A stretch of 19,938 bases of DNA from a virus. Lineage: Duplodnaviria > Heunggongvirae > Uroviricota > Caudoviricetes. Positions within the stretch are counted from its first letter, which is position 1; every line of letters begins with the position of its first letter. The stretch is taken from IMG/VR virus record IMGVR_UViG_2711768019_000002. One strand, given 5' to 3'. The notes beneath the pieces were generated by a model. It ran no database searches, was not told where the DNA came from, and saw only the letters and a list, made by a program, of their open reading frames with translations. Position numbers and translations under genes: made by a program. Below, in pieces: positions 1 to 19,681 of the stretch.

Positions 1-3000
1 ATACGCTATACCGTTAAAAATAATGGGCGGAATAATAATCTGGCGGTCAAAGTTATGATCATCGCTTATGGTGACTGTAACCGTCCCGTTTGGTGTTTCC
101 GTGTTACCCCACGTACCAGCCTGTTTCGGAAATGATTTGGATACAGCTTTAACGAAGTCACCTCTGACCTGAGTCGCCTCCAGCATGCCCTTAATCGTAC
201 AGTTTTCATTTACCGTGACATTGTTGAGCGTCCCGGCGTTCGCATTCACACTGCCACTGATATCCGCATTTTTAGCGGTCAGCTTTCCGTCCGGAGTCAG
301 GGAAAATGCCGATGGATTTCCACCGCTGGTAATGGTGGGGGCCGTCAGGCGTTTCAGGAACACGTCGTTCATGAATATCTGATCGCCCTGACCAACAAAC
401 ATCGGTTTTGTGTTGCCATTCGCAGGATTAACCATCGCAATCCTGTCCGCCGCCAGCAGCACCTGACTCTGCATGCCGTCAGGGGTGTTCTCAATACCGG
501 CACCAATACCCGCGATATAAAGGCGTCCGTCCTGCATCTGCTGCAGCTTCACAGCCCACATGCTGTTCAGGTTATTATTTGTATCAACCTGAACCTTCTG
601 TATCTGCTGAATTGCCGCACTCTGGTCTTCCAGTTTCTTATTGACGGTCTGCGTGATTTCATTGCTGACATCCGTAATGGACGTCCTGATTTCAGCCAGG
701 TCAGGCGCAAGCTGACCGTTATCAATCTGCGTCCACAGCTCCTGAGCCAGATGGGTTTTCCCTATCTCGCCTTTGAAAAAATCCAGATAACCGGATGCAT
801 CATCACTCGGCTGACCAACAGCCTCCACGAATGCCGATTTGCCAACGGTGTTCACACTGCGGATATAAAAGTAATAATCATGGCCCGGTTTGATATTGAT
901 ACTGGCGGCTATCCAGTACAGCGCCGTGCCAAGATAGCGTGCTGTGGTTTCAACCTGCCTGATATCCGCAATCCGCTTTTCCGAGAACCAGAACTCAAAC
1001 TGTACCGTCGGATCATAAACCGCAAGATGCGGCGTGGCGGTTATCTGAAAATAGCCCGGCGTCAGCTCAATCCGCGACAGCGCTGCCGGTGCGGCAATCC
1101 GGAACGATACCGACGCCGGATCGCCCTGCTGCCCCCACGCATTTACTGCCCGGACTGTCAGCCTGTAGTTCCCCAGCGCCAGTTGTGTGAAGCGGTAAGT
1201 GGTTTCCGTCGTCCGGGCCGTGCTGACCAGCCGCTCACTGCCGTCATCCGCTGTTACGGTCAGACGGAGCAGGAAGCTCACGCCCTTCACCACCTTCGGC
1301 GTGTCCCAGCGCGCCAGCACCTGATATTCCCCGCTGTCTGCGGTGACTTCGGCAGTCAGGTGCTGCACCGCTGGCGGCGTGACACCATTCACCGTGCCGC
1401 TCTGGTCGCCGTCAAAGTGCGCCCCGTTATCCACGATGGCTTCTTTTTCCGGCACATGCTGCACGGCGGTGATGGCATACGTGCCGTCGTCGTTCTCACG
1501 GATACTCACGCAGCGGAACAATCGCTGGTGCAGCGTCGGCAGCTTCAGCCCCCACACGCTGTATTCAGCAACACCGTCAGGAACACGGCTCACTTTTACC
1601 TTCACGCCGTCGGTGACGGACTGGACCTCCACGCTGACCGGATTCCCCTGCCCGTCAACCAGGCTTATCAGCGTGGTGCCGGAGGATGGCAGCGTGATTT
1701 CACGGTCGAGCGTCAGCGTCCGGGTCTGGCTGTTCACCGCCAGCACGCGCCCGCCGGTGCGGATACCGGCATAGTCATCATCGCAGATTTCAATGACATC
1801 GCCCGGTACATGACGAAGCCCTTCAGCACCCACGCTGAAATCCACGGTCTGCGTCTCCAGCAGTTCCGTTTTAATCAGCCACAGCCCGGCGCGGTGTGCC
1901 TGCCCCCGGCTGGTACAGCCAAAGGCATCCATCTTCGTGACGTTACGACCGTAACGGACAATGGCCTGCGTATCCTCCACAAGCTCTGTCGCCGTCTCCC
2001 AGCCGTTATCCGGGTCAATCCAGTTCACCTCAACGGCATTATGGCGGTCTTTCAGGGCGCTGAAACTGTAGCGGAACGGCGCGCCATCATCCGGCATCAC
2101 CACATTACTGCGGTTATAGGCCCACACCTTATCCGACTGTCGGTCCTGCACGAACGTCAGCGTCTGCCCGTTCCATACCGGCATACAGCGCATCGCCGAG
2201 CAGAAATCACTGAGCACATCCCACGCCTTGCGCTGTGTGGTCAGCCAGGCATTACAGGTGATGCGCGGCTCCGTGCTGCCAAAGCCGTCCGGCACCGACT
2301 GGTCACAGTACTGGCCGATGACATACAGCGCCCATTTATCCACATCTGCCGCACCAAGACGTTTCCCCATGCCATAGCGCGGATGGGTCAGCATATCCCA
2401 CAGACACCAGGCCATGTTGTTGCTGTATGCCGGTTTTAACGTTCCGTCCCAGATACCGCTGTATTGCCGCGTCTGCGGATTATAGTTCGACGGCACCTGC
2501 AGAATGCGCCCGCGAANNNNNNNNNNNNNNNNNNNNNNNNNNNNNNNNNNNNNNNNNNNNNNNNNNNNNNNNNNNNNNNNNNNNNNNNNNNNNNNNNNNN
2601 NNNNNNNNNNNNNNNNNNNNNNNNNNNNNNNNNNNNNNNNNNNNNNNNNNNNNNNNNNNNNNNNNNNNNNNNNNNNNNNNNNNNNNNNNNNNNNNNNNNN
2701 NNNNNNNNNNNNNNNNNNNNNNNNNNNNNNNNNNNNNNNNNNNNNNNNNNNNNNNNNNNNNNNNNNNNNNNNNNNNNNNNNNNNNNNNNNNNNNNNNNNN
2801 NNNNNNNNNNNNNNNNNNNNNNNNNNNNNNNNNNNNNNNNNNNNNNNACGCTGTATCTGAACCAGCAGGCGAACTTCAGACGGATTCCTGTCTCCCTTTG
2901 AGGTGGTTTCCACCAGTGCCTGTACACCGAAGGTAAAACGCAGTCGGTCAATGTTTGCCGACGTGATGGTCCGGGTGATCGGCGTGTCATATTTCACTTC

Positions 3001-3276
3001 CGTACCCAGCACCGTCTCGGAGCCGGAGGATTCAAATCCCTCCGGCGGTGACTGCTCCTGCTCACCTGCCCGGAACACCACCGTGACGCCGGAGATGTTG
3101 GTATTCCCCTCACTGTCCAGCACCGGCGTACTGTTCAGCAGCACGCTTTTTAATCCATCCACCGGACCTTCAACCGGCCCTTCGCTGATGGCATCGATCA
3201 CACTCAGCAGCTGCGTGGACTTCAGGTTGTCCTTCGCTTCGCGCGGGGTATGCCCCTTACTGCTGCCTTTACCCAT
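1..3276 (-). CDS. J: Tail tip/central tail fibre protein J (host specificity); partial, C-terminal ~40 codons lie beyond the window start; codons 144-254 masked by N-run
   Basis: Minus-strand ATG at 3274-3276 gives [13 protein letters not shown], matching lambda J N-terminus. Hand translation at 2461-2514 gives [18 protein letters not shown] and at 781-900 [29 protein letters not shown], both lambda J-like. Frame stays open to coordinate 1. Downstream of ~770 the sequence diverges from lambda. Confidence 0.9.
2517..2847. other. Run of 331 N (masked or unsequenced) inside gene J
   Basis: Literal n characters in the sequence. J codon phase (lowest codon coordinate 1 mod 3) is identical on both sides of the run. 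Confidence 0.99.
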
Positions 3277-3336
3277 TCGTCATGCTCCATAAACGATAAA
3301 ACCGCCCGGAGGCGATTTCACATAAAACATTTTGCA

Positions 3337-5682: not shown

Positions 5683-8240
5683 CGTCCACCTCCGGAGAAC
5701 AGGCCACCATCACGCATCTGTGTCTGAATTTCATCACGGGCACCCTTGCGGGCCATGTCATACACGGCCTTCATCATCTGTGGACCTGGCAGACCATTCG
5801 TACCGTCGTTCTGAATCACCACGTGATTGTTCTGATTAAAATTAATGCCTTCAGCCCGCCGCATCTGCGCCGGACTTCCGGCACCGCCCACATAACCACC
5901 TTCCGCATAGCCGCGCATCAGCCGGTAGAGATTCCCCACGCCAATCCGGCTGGTTGCCTCCTTCGTGAAGACAAATTCACCACGGTGAACAATCCCCGCT
6001 GGCTCATATTTGCCGCCGGTTCCCGTAAATCCCCCGGTTGCAAAATGGAATTTCACCGCAGCGGCCTGAATGGCTGTACCACCTGACGCGGATGCGCCGC
6101 CACCAACAGCCCCGCCAATGGCGCTGCCGATACTCCCGACAATCCCCACCATTGCCTGCTTAAGCAGAATTTCTGTCATCATGGACAGCACGGAGCGGGT
6201 GAAGCTGCGCCAGTTCTGTTCACTGCCGGTCAGCATCGCCGCCATATTCTGTGCAATACCATCAAAGGTCTGCGTGGCTGCACTTTTAACCTGTGACATA
6301 CTGTCCGTGGCGCTCTCTTCCCACTCACTCCAGCCGGACTTCAGGCCTGCCATCCAGCTCCCGCGAAGCTGGTCTTCAGCCGCCCAGGTCTTTTTCTGCT
6401 CTGACATGACGTTATTCAGCGCCAGAGGATTATCGCCATACTGTTCCTTCAGGCGCTGTTCCGTGGCTTCCCGCGCTGCCTGCCGGTCAGTCAGCCCCCG
6501 GTTTTTCGCATCAATGGCTGCCCGTTTTGCCCGTTGCTGCTGTGCGAATTTATCCGCCTGCTGCGCCAGCGCATTCAGGTGCTCCTGATACGTAACCTTG
6601 TCACCAAGTGCAGCCAGCTGGCGTTTGTACTCCAGCGTCTCGTCTTTATGCGCCAGCAGGGATTTCTCCTGTGCGGACAGCTGGCGACGTTGTGCCGCCT
6701 CCTCCAGTACCGCGAACTGACTTTCTGCCTTCCACAAATCCCGGCGCTGCTGGCTGATTTTCTCATTCGCTCCGGCATGCTTCTCCAGCGTCCGGAGTTC
6801 TGCCTGAAGCGTCAGCAGGGCCGCATGAGCACTGTCTTCCTGACGATCGCCCGCATACACCTTCACGCCGGACTGTTTCGGCTTTTTCAGCGTCGCTTCA
6901 TAATCCTTTTTCGCCGCCGCCATCAGCGTGTTGTAATCTGCCTGCAGGATTTTTCCGTCTTTCAGTGCCTTGTTCAGTTCTTCCTGACGGGCGGTATATT
7001 TCTCCAGCGGCGTCTGCAGCCGTTCGTAAGCCTTCTGCGCCTCTTCGGTATATTTCAGCCGTGACGCTTCGGTATCGCTCTGCTGCTGCGCATTTTTGTC
7101 CTGTTGACGCTGTTGATCTACCCTCTTTTGGGCTGCATCCCGCTCCAGGCGTTTTTTTTCACGATCATCCCAGTAACGCGCCCGTGCTTCATCGTTAACG
7201 AAATAATCATCCTTGCGCAGATTCCAGATGTCGTCTGCTTTCTTAAACGCAGCCTCTGCCTTAATCAGCATCTCCTGCGCGGTATCAGGACGACCAATAT
7301 CCAGCACCGCATCCCACATGGATTTGAATGCACGTGCAGTCCTGTCTGCCCAGGTCTCCAGCGTGCCCATGTTCTCTTTCAGGCGGCGGGTCTGGTCATC
7401 AAACCCTTTCGTTGCGGCCTCGTTCGCCGCCTGCAATGCCCCGGCTTCATCGCCGGAACGCTGCAACTGAGCAACATACGCAATCTGCTCCGCCGTCACG
7501 TTATGGAACTGGCGTGCCATCGCCGTCAGCCCCGACGTCGGGTCTGTGGTCAGCTTCCCGAAGGCTTCAGCGACCTTGTCCACCTCCACGCCGGATGCAT
7601 AGGAGAAACGCGCCACACTCTGGCTGATGGACGCAATCTGAGCCTCACCGCTTACCCCCGCCTTAACCAGTGCGCTGAGTGACTCGCTGGTCTGGTTAAA
7701 CGTCAGCCCTGCCGCCTGCCCGGCTCTGGACAGGACCAGCATACGATCTGCCGTCAGTCCCGCCTGATTACCGGAAAGGACCAGCGTTTTGTTGAAATCG
7801 GACAGGGTTGAGTTGCCCTGATACCAGGCATACGCCAGCGCACCGGTCGCCACCGCCAGCGAGGTGGCCCCCACCATCGGCAGGGTGATCGCGCCGGCAA
7901 GCCCCCTGAACATGGGGATCATCCCGCCGAAGGAGTCCTTAACCTGACCACCCTGTTGCAGCAGGATCAGCCAGGGATTCTGCCCCCCTGCAAGCTGCGT
8001 GGCCACGTCGGTGAACTGTGCAGGCAGCATACGCATGGCGGCTTTATACTGCCCGACGGAAATCCCCGCTTTCTGTGCAGCCAGCGCCTGTCGGCTCAGC
8101 GACTGTTCAACGACTGCCGCTGTTTTTTTCGCATCACTTTCCGTACCGGAAAAATGACGCCTGACTCTGGCCATCTGCTCGTCAAATCTGGCCGCATCCA
8201 GACTCAAATCAACGACCAGATCGCCTACCGGTTCAGCCAT
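5679..8240 (-). CDS. H: Tail tape measure protein H
   Basis: 853-aa ORF MAEPVGDLVVDLSLDAARFDEQ..., same length as lambda gpH. Long Ala/Gln/Glu-rich coiled-coil central region, Gly-rich C-terminal part. Confidence 0.95.
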   Translation of the reverse strand: MAEPVGDLVVDLSLDAARFDEQMARVRRHFSGTESDAKKTAAVVEQSLSRQALAAQKAGISVGQYKAAMRMLPAQFTDVATQLAGGQNPWLILLQQGGQVKDSFGGMIPMFRGLAGAITLPMVGATSLAVATGALAYAWYQGNSTLSDFNKTLVLSGNQAGLTADRMLVLSRAGQAAGLTFNQTSESLSALVKAGVSGEAQIASISQSVARFSYASGVEVDKVAEAFGKLTTDPTSGLTAMARQFHNVTAEQIAYVAQLQRSGDEAGALQAANEAATKGFDDQTRRLKENMGTLETWADRTARAFKSMWDAVLDIGRPDTAQEMLIKAEAAFKKADDIWNLRKDDYFVNDEARARYWDDREKKRLERDAAQKRVDQQRQQDKNAQQQSDTEASRLKYTEEAQKAYERLQTPLEKYTARQEELNKALKDGKILQADYNTLMAAAKKDYEATLKKPKQSGVKVYAGDRQEDSAHAALLTLQAELRTLEKHAGANEKISQQRRDLWKAESQFAVLEEAAQRRQLSAQEKSLLAHKDETLEYKRQLAALGDKVTYQEHLNALAQQADKFAQQQRAKRAAIDAKNRGLTDRQAAREATEQRLKEQYGDNPLALNNVMSEQKKTWAAEDQLRGSWMAGLKSGWSEWEESATDSMSQVKSAATQTFDGIAQNMAAMLTGSEQNWRSFTRSVLSMMTEILLKQAMVGIVGSIGSAIGGAVGGGASASGGTAIQAAAVKFHFATGGFTGTGGKYEPAGIVHRGEFVFTKEATSRIGVGNLYRLMRGYAEGGYVGGAGSPAQMRRAEGINFNQNNHVVIQNDGTNGLPGPQMMKAVYDMARKGARDEIQTQMRDGGLFSGGGR

Positions 8241-14364: not shown

Positions 14365-18045
<3,681 letters not shown>

Positions 18046-18071
<26 letters not shown>

Positions 18072-18591
18072 TCAGCAACCCCGGTATCAGTTCATCCAGC
18101 GCGGCTGCTTTGTTCATGGCTTTGATGATATCCCGTTTCAGGAAATCAACATGTCGGTTTTCCAGTTCCGGAAAACGCCGCTGCACCGACAGGGGGATCC
18201 CGTCGAGAATACTGGCAATTTCACCTGCGATCCGCGACAGCACGAAAGTACAGAATGCGGTTTCCACCACTTCAGCGGAGTCTCTGGCATTTTTCAGCTC
18301 CTGTGCGTCGGCCTGCGCACGCGTAAGTCGATGGCGTTCGTACTCAATAGTCCCTGGCTGGAGATCTGTCTCGCTGGCCTGCCGCAGTTCTTCAACTTCC
18401 CGGCGCAGCTTTTCGTTCTCAATTTCAGCATCCCTTTCGGCATACCATCTTATAACGGCGGCAGAGTCATAAAGCACCTCATTACCCTTGCCACCGCCTC
18501 GCAGAACGGGCATTCCCTGTTCCTGCCAGTTCTGAATGGTACGGATACTCGCACCGAAAATGTCAGCCAGCTGCTTTTTGTTGACTTCCAT
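18046..18591 (-). CDS. Nu1: Terminase small subunit Nu1
   Basis: 181-aa ORF MEVNKKQLADIFGASIRTIQNWQEQGMPVLRGGGKGNEVLYD..., lambda gpNu1 length, with N-terminal HTH region. Confidence 0.97.
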
Positions 18592-18599
18592 TGTTCATT

Positions 18600-18830
18600 C
18601 CACGGACAAAAACAGAGAAAGGAAACGACAGAGGCCAAAAAGCCCGTTTTCAGCACCTGTCGTTTCCTTTCTTTTCAGGGGGTGTTTTAAATAAAAACAT
18701 TAGGTTACGGCGAAGAAGAACGGAAACGCCTTAAACCGGAAAATTGTCATAAATAGCGAAAACCCGCGCGCCTTCCGCCCCGTAACCTGTCGGATCGCCG
18801 GAAAGGACCCGCAAAATGATAATAATTATC
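18600..18830 (-). other. cos packaging site: cosB (Nu1-binding repeats R1 ~18612-18633, R2 ~18653-18678, R3 ~18711-18730, with an AT-rich IHF-type segment between R2 and R3), cosN core 18769-18780, cosQ-side flank to ~18830
   Basis: Inverted and direct copies of the GAAAGGAAACGACAG-type element. The flanks GCGAAAACCCGCG and CGTAACCTGTCGGATCGCCGGAAA match the lambda cos junction from memory. The 12-nt core here is CGCCTTCCGCCC on the plus strand. Confidence 0.8.
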
Positions 18831-18979: not shown

Positions 18980-19213
18980 ATGTCAACGAAGAACAGAACC
19001 CGCAGAACAACAACCCGCAACATCCGCTTTCCTAACCAAATGATTGAACAAATTAACATCGCTCTTGTTCAAAAAGGGTCCGGGAATTTCTCAGCCTGGG
19101 TCATTGAAGCCTGCCGCCGGAGACTGTGCTCAGAAAAAAGAGTTTCGCCTGAAGCAAACAAAGAAAAGAGTGACATTACTGAATTGCTCAGAAAACAGGT
19201 TAGACCAGATTGA
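18980..19213 (+). CDS. Small basic DNA-binding-like protein, probable ribbon-helix-helix fold; resembles YnfO/YlcI-family (DUF3950) proteins of E. coli lambdoid prophages
   Basis: 77-aa ORF MSTKNRTRRTTTRNIRFPNQMIEQINIALVQKGSGNFSAWVIEACRRRL... Basic N-terminus, then a predicted beta-strand and two helices. Family assignment is from memory, not a search. Confidence 0.55.
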   Translation: MSTKNRTRRTTTRNIRFPNQMIEQINIALVQKGSGNFSAWVIEACRRRLCSEKRVSPEANKEKSDITELLRKQVRPD

Positions 19214-19270
19214 AGCAATTTAGATAATCGTGCAGACTACGCCCCCTCATATCACATGGAAGGTACTACA

Positions 19271-19681
19271 ATGGCTCAGGTTGCCATTTTTAAACAAATA
19301 TTCGATAAAGTGCGAAATAATTTAAACTATCACTGGTTTTATTCTGAACTAAAACGTCACAATGTCTCACATTACATTTACTATTTAGCCACAGAGAATA
19401 TTCATCTTGTTCTTGAAAACGATAATACGGTTTTAATAAAAGGACAGGGTAAGGTTGTAAATGTAAGATTTTCAAAAAATAAATGCCTTATAGAAGCCAC
19501 CTTAAAAGGATTCAAATCAGGAGAGTTATCATTTTACGAATACAGGAAAAATCTTGCTACAGCAGGGGTTTTCAGATGGATTACAAATATCCACGAAAAC
19601 AAAAGGTATTACTATACCTTTGATAATTCATTACTCTTTACTGAGAACATACAGAACACTACACAAATATTTCCGCACTAA
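19271..19681 (+). CDS. Hypothetical protein resembling the YdfO/YbcV family (DUF1398) found next to cos in E. coli lambdoid prophages
   Basis: ORF 19256-19681. The ATG at 19271 ([45 protein letters not shown]...) has GGAAGG ~9 nt upstream. Family assignment is from memory. Confidence 0.55.

Follow-up and report, generated by a model that had tools for sequence, protein, structure and literature searches.

Naturally occurring lambda-like cosN sites vary at bp 7-12: N15 and phiD326 are changed at positions 9 and 12, and Gifsy-1 at positions 8, 9 and 11 (PMC4669245, Feiss et al. 2015). The 7-bp cosQ does not share in this variation, nor do the CG dinucleotides next to the nicks, all of which are conserved (PMC4669245). 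The two halves of cosN respond very differently to mutation. Right-half changes have a minimal phenotype whereas the symmetric left-half changes are severe; for example, G2C costs about 10-fold and C11G costs nothing (PMC4669245, citing Xu and Feiss 1991). This asymmetry reflects the proximity of the right half to cosB: because TerS bound at R3 anchors TerL, nicking of the bottom strand is insensitive to sequence (PMC4669245). Right-half changes have no measurable effect on cleavage, the bottom-strand nick being made by the cosB-anchored terminase, and the cosN of N15 and phiD326 is cut equally well by lambda TerL, as was shown genetically (PMC4669245). A two-base mismatch between ends, as in the N15 case, lowers the yield about four-fold and the phages are still viable (PMC4669245). 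For LLS/mEp213, a cohesive end GGGCGGCGCGCT, with the right half CGCGCT, has been inferred (PMC12315714). The sticky end annotated in the N15 record is GGGCGGCGTCCG. Here we describe the cos site in a 19,938-nt stretch of viral DNA (IMG/VR record IMGVR_UViG_2711768019_000002), hereafter the window, in which most of the right half of cosN is replaced.

The cos region of the window

The cohesive-end core lies at 18769..18780 on the minus strand. The plus strand reads CGCCTTCCGCCC over this interval and the minus strand, which corresponds to the lambda orientation, reads GGGCGGAAGGCG, with ...GATCCGACAGGTTACG at its left and CGCGGGTTTTCGC... at its right; read through, the minus strand is GGTTACG, then GGGCGGAAGGCG, then CGCGGGTTTTCGC. 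When the core is extended to the 16-bp cosN as defined in PMC9026076 (18767..18782, minus strand), the CG dinucleotides at both predicted nick sites are found to be kept (...TTACG before the core and CGCGGG... after it). We compared this region with DE3, a lambda-type phage derived from lambda, in which the annotated 'cos site' is GGGCGGCGACCT and the flanks are the same as those of the window. The window core agrees with lambda at 7 of 12 positions, including all of bp 1-6 and C11, and is changed at bp 7, 8, 9, 10 and 12. In an ungapped alignment of 360 bp around cos, these five account for 5 of the 22 mismatches between the window and DE3. At the background divergence (17 mismatches in 354 bp), the probability of finding at least five mismatches in some 6-bp interval is about 5e-4, and the cluster is therefore real and not the product of random scatter.

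The replacement alters some properties of the site and leaves others as they were. The rotational symmetry of the 16-bp cosN falls to 8 of 16 bp, compared with 10 of 16 in lambda. Read directly from the sequence, the CG/NG pattern near the nick (the slash marks the nick) is kept at both nicks: the left nick is CG/GG, and the right nick, on the bottom strand, is CG/CG in the window versus CG/AG in lambda. The GC content of the core (10 of 12) is essentially that of lambda, and the predicted nearest-neighbour stability of the duplex is about equal for the two overhangs (-17.8 kcal/mol for the window and -18.2 kcal/mol for lambda).

Two simple origins for the new right half were considered and set aside. 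A small inversion does not account for it, as the reverse complement of CGACCT is AGGTCG and not AAGGCG. A templated copy from nearby was suggested by a second AAGGCG at bp 48-53, at the edge of R3; since about 0.2 matches to a 6-mer are expected by chance within some 360 bp on two strands, this second occurrence is no evidence for copying.

The rest of cos is that of lambda. All three R sequences of cosB are on the minus strand and identical to those of DE3: R3 (AGGCGTTTCCGTTCTT, 18716..18731, lambda bp 50-65, its extent taken from PMC9026076), the inverted R2 (AGAAAGGAAACGACAG, 18657..18672) and R1 (CTGTCGTTTCCTTTCT, 18616..18631). R3 stands at the same distance from the core as in DE3, with no indel in the interval between them, and the distance from cos to the Nu1 ATG is likewise the same; the spacer between R3 and R2 has four mismatches to DE3. 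On the other side of the core, at 18804..18810 on the minus strand (-30..-24), lies a GGGTCCT heptamer that is identical in DE3 and that, by lambda coordinates, we take to be cosQ. Downstream of cosB on the minus strand follow the two terminase genes. Nu1 (TerS, 181 aa, 18046..18591) matches Pfam Phage_Nu1 with E = 2e-101 and is identical to DE3 Nu1 at 178 of 181 residues. The gpA protein (TerL, 641 aa, 16146..18071) has the GpA_ATPase and GpA_nuclease domains and is identical to DE3 gpA at 637 of 641 residues. The window thus has the sequence elements by which Feiss et al. recognise a lambda-like cos, namely likeness of the core, CG flanks, cosQ and a complex cosB followed by the TerS gene. 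The differences in cosN do not extend beyond bp 7-12, and neither bp 1-6 nor the CG flanks nor cosQ are affected.

These results bear out the description given in an initial annotation of this DNA. It had quoted the core at 18769-18780, and we found the same letters and flanks there on the minus strand; the lambda end that it gave, GGGCGGCGACCT, is indeed the annotated 'cos site' of DE3 within the same flanks; its observation that the left half is the same and that 5 of 6 right-half positions are changed corresponds to bp 7, 8, 9, 10 and 12 of the alignment; and its statement that R1-R3, the flanks and Nu1/A are lambda-like holds for R3, R2 and R1 (identical to DE3), Nu1 (98%) and gpA (99%). 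Where it went astray was in calling a change confined to one half-site unusual: variation of bp 7-12 with conservation of bp 1-6 is the documented pattern (PMC4669245), of which the N15 end GGGCGGCGTCCG is an example.

Just upstream of cos in the lambda orientation, and on the strand opposite to the structural genes, are two small genes that form a moron-like pair: a DUF3950 gene (77 aa, 18980-19213, plus strand) and a DUF1398/YbcV-like gene (141 aa, 19256-19681, plus strand). The deposited phage PhiR70_1 has the pair at the same place.

Distribution and carriers of the variant core

We determined how often the variant and canonical cores occur in complete E. coli genomes, using 38-nt queries with which the 28-nt exact word required by megablast can be supplied only by the matching allele. 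The variant GGGCGGAAGGCG was present at 166 places in 155 of 5,426 genomes (150 on chromosomes and 16 on plasmid records), and the canonical GGGCGGCGACCT at 7,413 places in 4,101 of 5,426 genomes (7,394 on chromosomes and 19 on plasmid records). The variant consequently makes up about 2% of the lambda-type cos sites in E. coli. Plasmid records account for 16 of its 166 places and for 19 of the 7,413 canonical ones, an enrichment of about 37-fold, and on these records the two cores are nearly equally frequent.

The variant is also recurrent in viral sequence collections. Scanning IMG/VR with fixed flanks and a free 12-mer gave, among the matches listed, 116 canonical cores, 2 variant cores and one GGGCGACGACCT, and, again among the matches listed, one contig that lay outside the stricter pattern used for the tally. 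An exact 29-mer scan for the variant found 14 contigs, and the variant was found in about 50 IMG/VR contigs once the left flank was loosened. When the scan required that bp 12 be other than T, 55 contigs were obtained, nearly all of them with GGGCGGAAGGCG, the remaining cores ending in CGACCG, CAGACG, CTGACG or CAGGCG. The variant core stands in 35 distinct local sequence contexts, nearly all of which retain the GGGTCCT heptamer. In a collection with one genome per species, the exact core with its flanks was found only in Escherichia sp. E1V33, which is 97.8% identical to the window. A full-text literature search for the 12-mer returned an unrelated plant paper only and no phage paper. The scope of that search did not extend to Vahanian et al. 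2017 (Virology 509:140), which is reportedly a dedicated survey.

The elements that carry the variant are diverse. The window itself, having cosB, Nu1 and A, is a full lambda-type prophage rather than a satellite. In APEC E14033, a complete-looking prophage with the variant cos is integrated beside ybhC and has int/xis, exo/bet/gam, cI/cro, O/P and Q. An inserted island of about 11 kb interrupts the major capsid gene E of this prophage (L138, NZ_CP126948.1, 26164-38465). It has its own integrase, an Icd-like protein, a primase, an SSB, and major capsid and head decoration genes of its own; the island resembles a capsid-forming PICI inserted into the capsid gene of its helper. The plasmid records that we inspected (pAH01-1, PhiR46_1 and YDC107_1) are N15-like phage-plasmids of about 46 kb with a lambda-type Nu1/A and cosB. 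PhiR46_1 is a 46-kb linear phage-plasmid with telL/telR, ParA/ParB, a large primase and a complete lambda-type module from Nu1 to Stf; YDC107_1 is a complete phage-plasmid classified as Ravinvirus, and pAH01-1 is a plasmid of 46.9 kb. The record of PhiR46_1 gives E. coli ECOR13 as host, and the evidence that PhiR46_1 may form infectious particles is this host field. Literature searches on the PhiR phage series yielded no paper on how PhiR46_1 was obtained, and literature searches on the phage-plasmid carriers PhiR46_1 and YDC107_1 yielded none documenting plaque formation. We found no deposited phage genome that starts at the variant core; the records of the two deposited phages that have it follow the prophage or plasmid order.

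Satellites carry the variant as well. Four PICI-like elements (L143, L148, L171 and L176) have cosQ and the variant core with a non-lambda right flank; in L148 (4493-5868), the core adjoins an AlpA-family gene and a gene for a 183-aa Nu1-family (Rpp-like) protein. A defective carrier was also observed, L128 (IMGVR_UViG_3300039332_000035, about 1200-3300), where a deletion that begins some 45 bp to the right of the core has removed cosB, Nu1 and the N-terminus of gpA, and what remains of gpA is frameshifted.

Flanking haplotypes and terminase genes of the two alleles

Leaving the core itself out of the comparison, we counted 33 haplotypes in the left flanks of the variant loci and 24 in the right flanks; two of each are exactly shared with canonical loci. 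The window and the canonical locus L104 differ by only 2 nt over 250 bp of flanks and by 5 in the core. Because flank haplotypes are shared, and because a five-base difference in the core accompanies a difference of only 2 nt in the flanks, the core behaves as a discrete allele, carried from one background to another by recombination. Descent from a single clade is rejected as a full account by the same 33 left and 24 right haplotypes, some of them exactly common to canonical loci.

Other right halves were present in the survey, namely CGACCG, CAGACG, CTGACG, CAGGCG and AGACCT. The core CAGGCG of L165, which is one step from the variant, was found once; the rare right halves CAGGCG, CAGACG, CTGACG and CGACCG are those of L165, L150, L173 and L144. 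PhiR70_1 (L121) has the core GGGCGGAGACCT, in which bp 7 only is changed. In these other cores, too, the change is limited to bp 7-12, the exception being L071 (IMGVR_UViG_2778261513_000005), whose core GGGCGACGACCT is changed at bp 6, in the normally conserved left half.

Does the variant core come with a terminase of its own? We aligned 77 full-length gpA sequences, each encoded downstream of a core of known type: 29 had the variant, 47 the canonical core and 1 another core. No column of this alignment separated variant from canonical, the best discrimination being 0.45. Moreover, 100% identical proteins occur beside variant and canonical loci, as is the case for two gpA and four Nu1 sequences. 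The four differences between the gpA of the window and that of DE3 (T151S, D185E, L404R and T466I) are each polymorphic in both allele groups. L404R, which lies in the GpA_nuclease domain (16862-16864 of the window, minus strand), is found in 3 of the 29 gpA sequences linked to the variant and in 5 of the 47 linked to the canonical core, and is a polymorphism unrelated to the cosN allele. A model in which the nuclease specificity of gpA is matched to the core was accordingly discarded, as no gpA residue discriminates and the four window differences are polymorphic in both groups. To judge from these genomes, the same enzyme is paired with both sites in nature.

No decay is evident in the window or in the gpA genes beside the variant. 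The head and tail genes of the window from Nu1 to I are all open and of the expected sizes, and the frame of J stays open as far as the left edge of the window, a masked N run aside. This run of 331 N, at 2517-2847 inside the gpJ gene (tail-tip host specificity, minus strand), seems to reflect masking in the source data and not biology. Among loci with enough downstream sequence, gpA is intact at 30 of 33 variant loci versus 45 of 60 canonical loci. The variant-linked gpA genes have a pS of 0.075 and a pN of 0.0035 (pN/pS 0.046) and are under strong purifying selection.

Readings of the site and comparison with known systems

The site in the window is very probably a functional natural allele of the lambda-type cosN, with the predicted overhang GGGCGGAAGGCG. 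Nu1 would bind R3, R2 and R1 of cosB, which have the lambda sequence and spacing, and would anchor gpA. The bottom strand would be nicked by one gpA between bp 12 and 13, and the top strand by another gpA before bp 1; together the two nicks would leave a 12-nt 5' overhang GGGCGGAAGGCG instead of GGGCGGCGACCT. The bottom-strand nick would be placed by the cosB anchor and not by a reading of bp 7-12, so that bp 7-12 would be free to vary, with bp 1-6, the CG flanks and cosQ fixed. Since both ends of one genome derive from the same cosN sequence, the new overhang should be self-complementary. By analogy with the characterised sites, a lambda-type terminase would be expected to cut this site efficiently. 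The variants from the Feiss laboratory were changed at two to three positions at most, and because 5 of 6 changes in the right half exceed any variant tested there, tolerance of the present allele is an extrapolation from those experiments. The allele is recurrent and ordinary, and it lies in the half of the site documented as free to vary. The suggestion of the initial annotation that cosN here has a natural variant form, which yields another overhang, is thus supported, the overhang being a predicted one, by the 166 places in E. coli, the roughly 50 viral contigs and the complete phage genomes that have it.

The same annotation had offered two other explanations, neither of which fared as well. 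According to one, the change impairs the nicking of one strand in a decaying prophage. In the form weighed here, the core is a crippled cosN in which the bottom-strand nick is hindered, and the element has lost the packaging of its DNA. The replacement of 5 of 6 right-half positions, with the drop in symmetry from 10 to 8 of 16 bp, would fit such a loss, as would the existence of defective carriers such as L128 and the interruption of the capsid gene in APEC E14033 by an island. A crippled site would not, however, be expected in 35 contexts and 155 genomes, nor in complete phage-plasmids deposited as phages; nor would it be expected next to a gpA that is more often intact than beside the canonical core (30 of 33 versus 45 of 60) and has a pN/pS of about 0.05. 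The structural module of the window, moreover, is fully open from Nu1 to J, and published mutagenesis found the right half insensitive, even C11G being without phenotype (PMC4669245). We regard impaired nicking as very unlikely. According to the other explanation, the core is an engineered or assembly artefact, to which a sequencing artefact peculiar to this record may be added. That the changes are clustered might suggest this, but the identical 12-mer recurs in many assemblies made independently in different laboratories and countries and from different hosts, and the likelihood of an artefact is negligible.

A different possibility accepts the allele as functional and asks why it persists: the two alleles could be discrete cohesive-end incompatibility ('mating') types that share one terminase and cosB and are kept apart by selection rather than drift. 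That the main alleles are five positions apart with rare intermediates (CAGGCG was seen once), that the full five-base difference is found on flanks only 2 nt from those of a canonical locus, and that the variant is enriched about 37-fold on plasmid records (16 of 166 versus 19 of 7,413) are all in keeping with this idea. Relaxed constraint together with recombination fits the same data without selection, though, and several further right-half cores exist; in addition, PICI-like satellites carry the variant too. We therefore hold selection between two such types to be improbable. The isolating step proposed, in which chromosomes from mixed concatemers, having ends mismatched at 5 of 12 positions, would fail to cyclise and leave the lineages partly isolated, is similarly doubtful: a two-base mismatch alone costs about four-fold in yield, but phages with mismatched ends were still viable in this published case (PMC4669245). 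A slight case for incompatibility persists because 5 of 6 changes go beyond the characterised examples and because of the enrichment on phage-plasmids. If it were true, the canonical core would be the type of about 98% and AAGGCG that of about 2% of sites, and productive packaging from mixed concatemers between the lineages would be limited.

Taken as a functional natural allele, the site changes little in our understanding of the mechanism, as it fits the established view that the cosB anchor, and not bp 7-12, directs the bottom-strand nick. With 5 of 6 changes, it is a more extreme natural test of right-half tolerance than any studied so far. Together with the canonical core it would also provide two naturally available ends that do not pair and presumably share one terminase specificity, and these could serve in studies of cyclisation and of packaging from mixed concatemers. 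In practical terms, tools for annotation and for the prediction of termini that seek GGGCGGCGACCT will miss about 2% of the E. coli sites of the lambda type; on phage-plasmids the share missed will be nearly half.

Among known systems, the PICI-like carriers L143, L148, L171 and L176 are like the enteric PICIs (EcCI), which have a helper-like cosQ-cosN without the lambda cosB, followed by an rpp gene (PMC9026076); the layout of L148, with the variant core, AlpA and a Nu1-family gene, matches the cos-rpp layout described there. The window itself is closest to lambda (cosN GGGCGGCGACCT and a tripartite cosB, R3-I1-R2-R1), with which it has in common the architecture, the spacing, cosQ, the left half-site, the CG flanks and R3, R2 and R1; the predicted overhangs of the two, in contrast, would fail to pair at 5 of 12 positions (bp 7, 8, 9, 10 and 12). 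Gifsy-1 and LLS/mEp213 resemble the window in that variation is limited to bp 7-12, with other sequences (PMC4669245, PMC12315714); bp 11 is changed in Gifsy-1 whereas the window keeps it. The cosN of N15 and phiD326, GGGCGGCGTCCG, has, like that of the window, a conserved left half, a changed right half, G at bp 12 and intact CG flanks. N15 differs from lambda at only 2 positions and the window allele at 5, and whereas in N15 the cosB is simple, consisting of R3 only, and the TerL is 65% identical, the window allele goes with a cosB and terminase of the lambda type.
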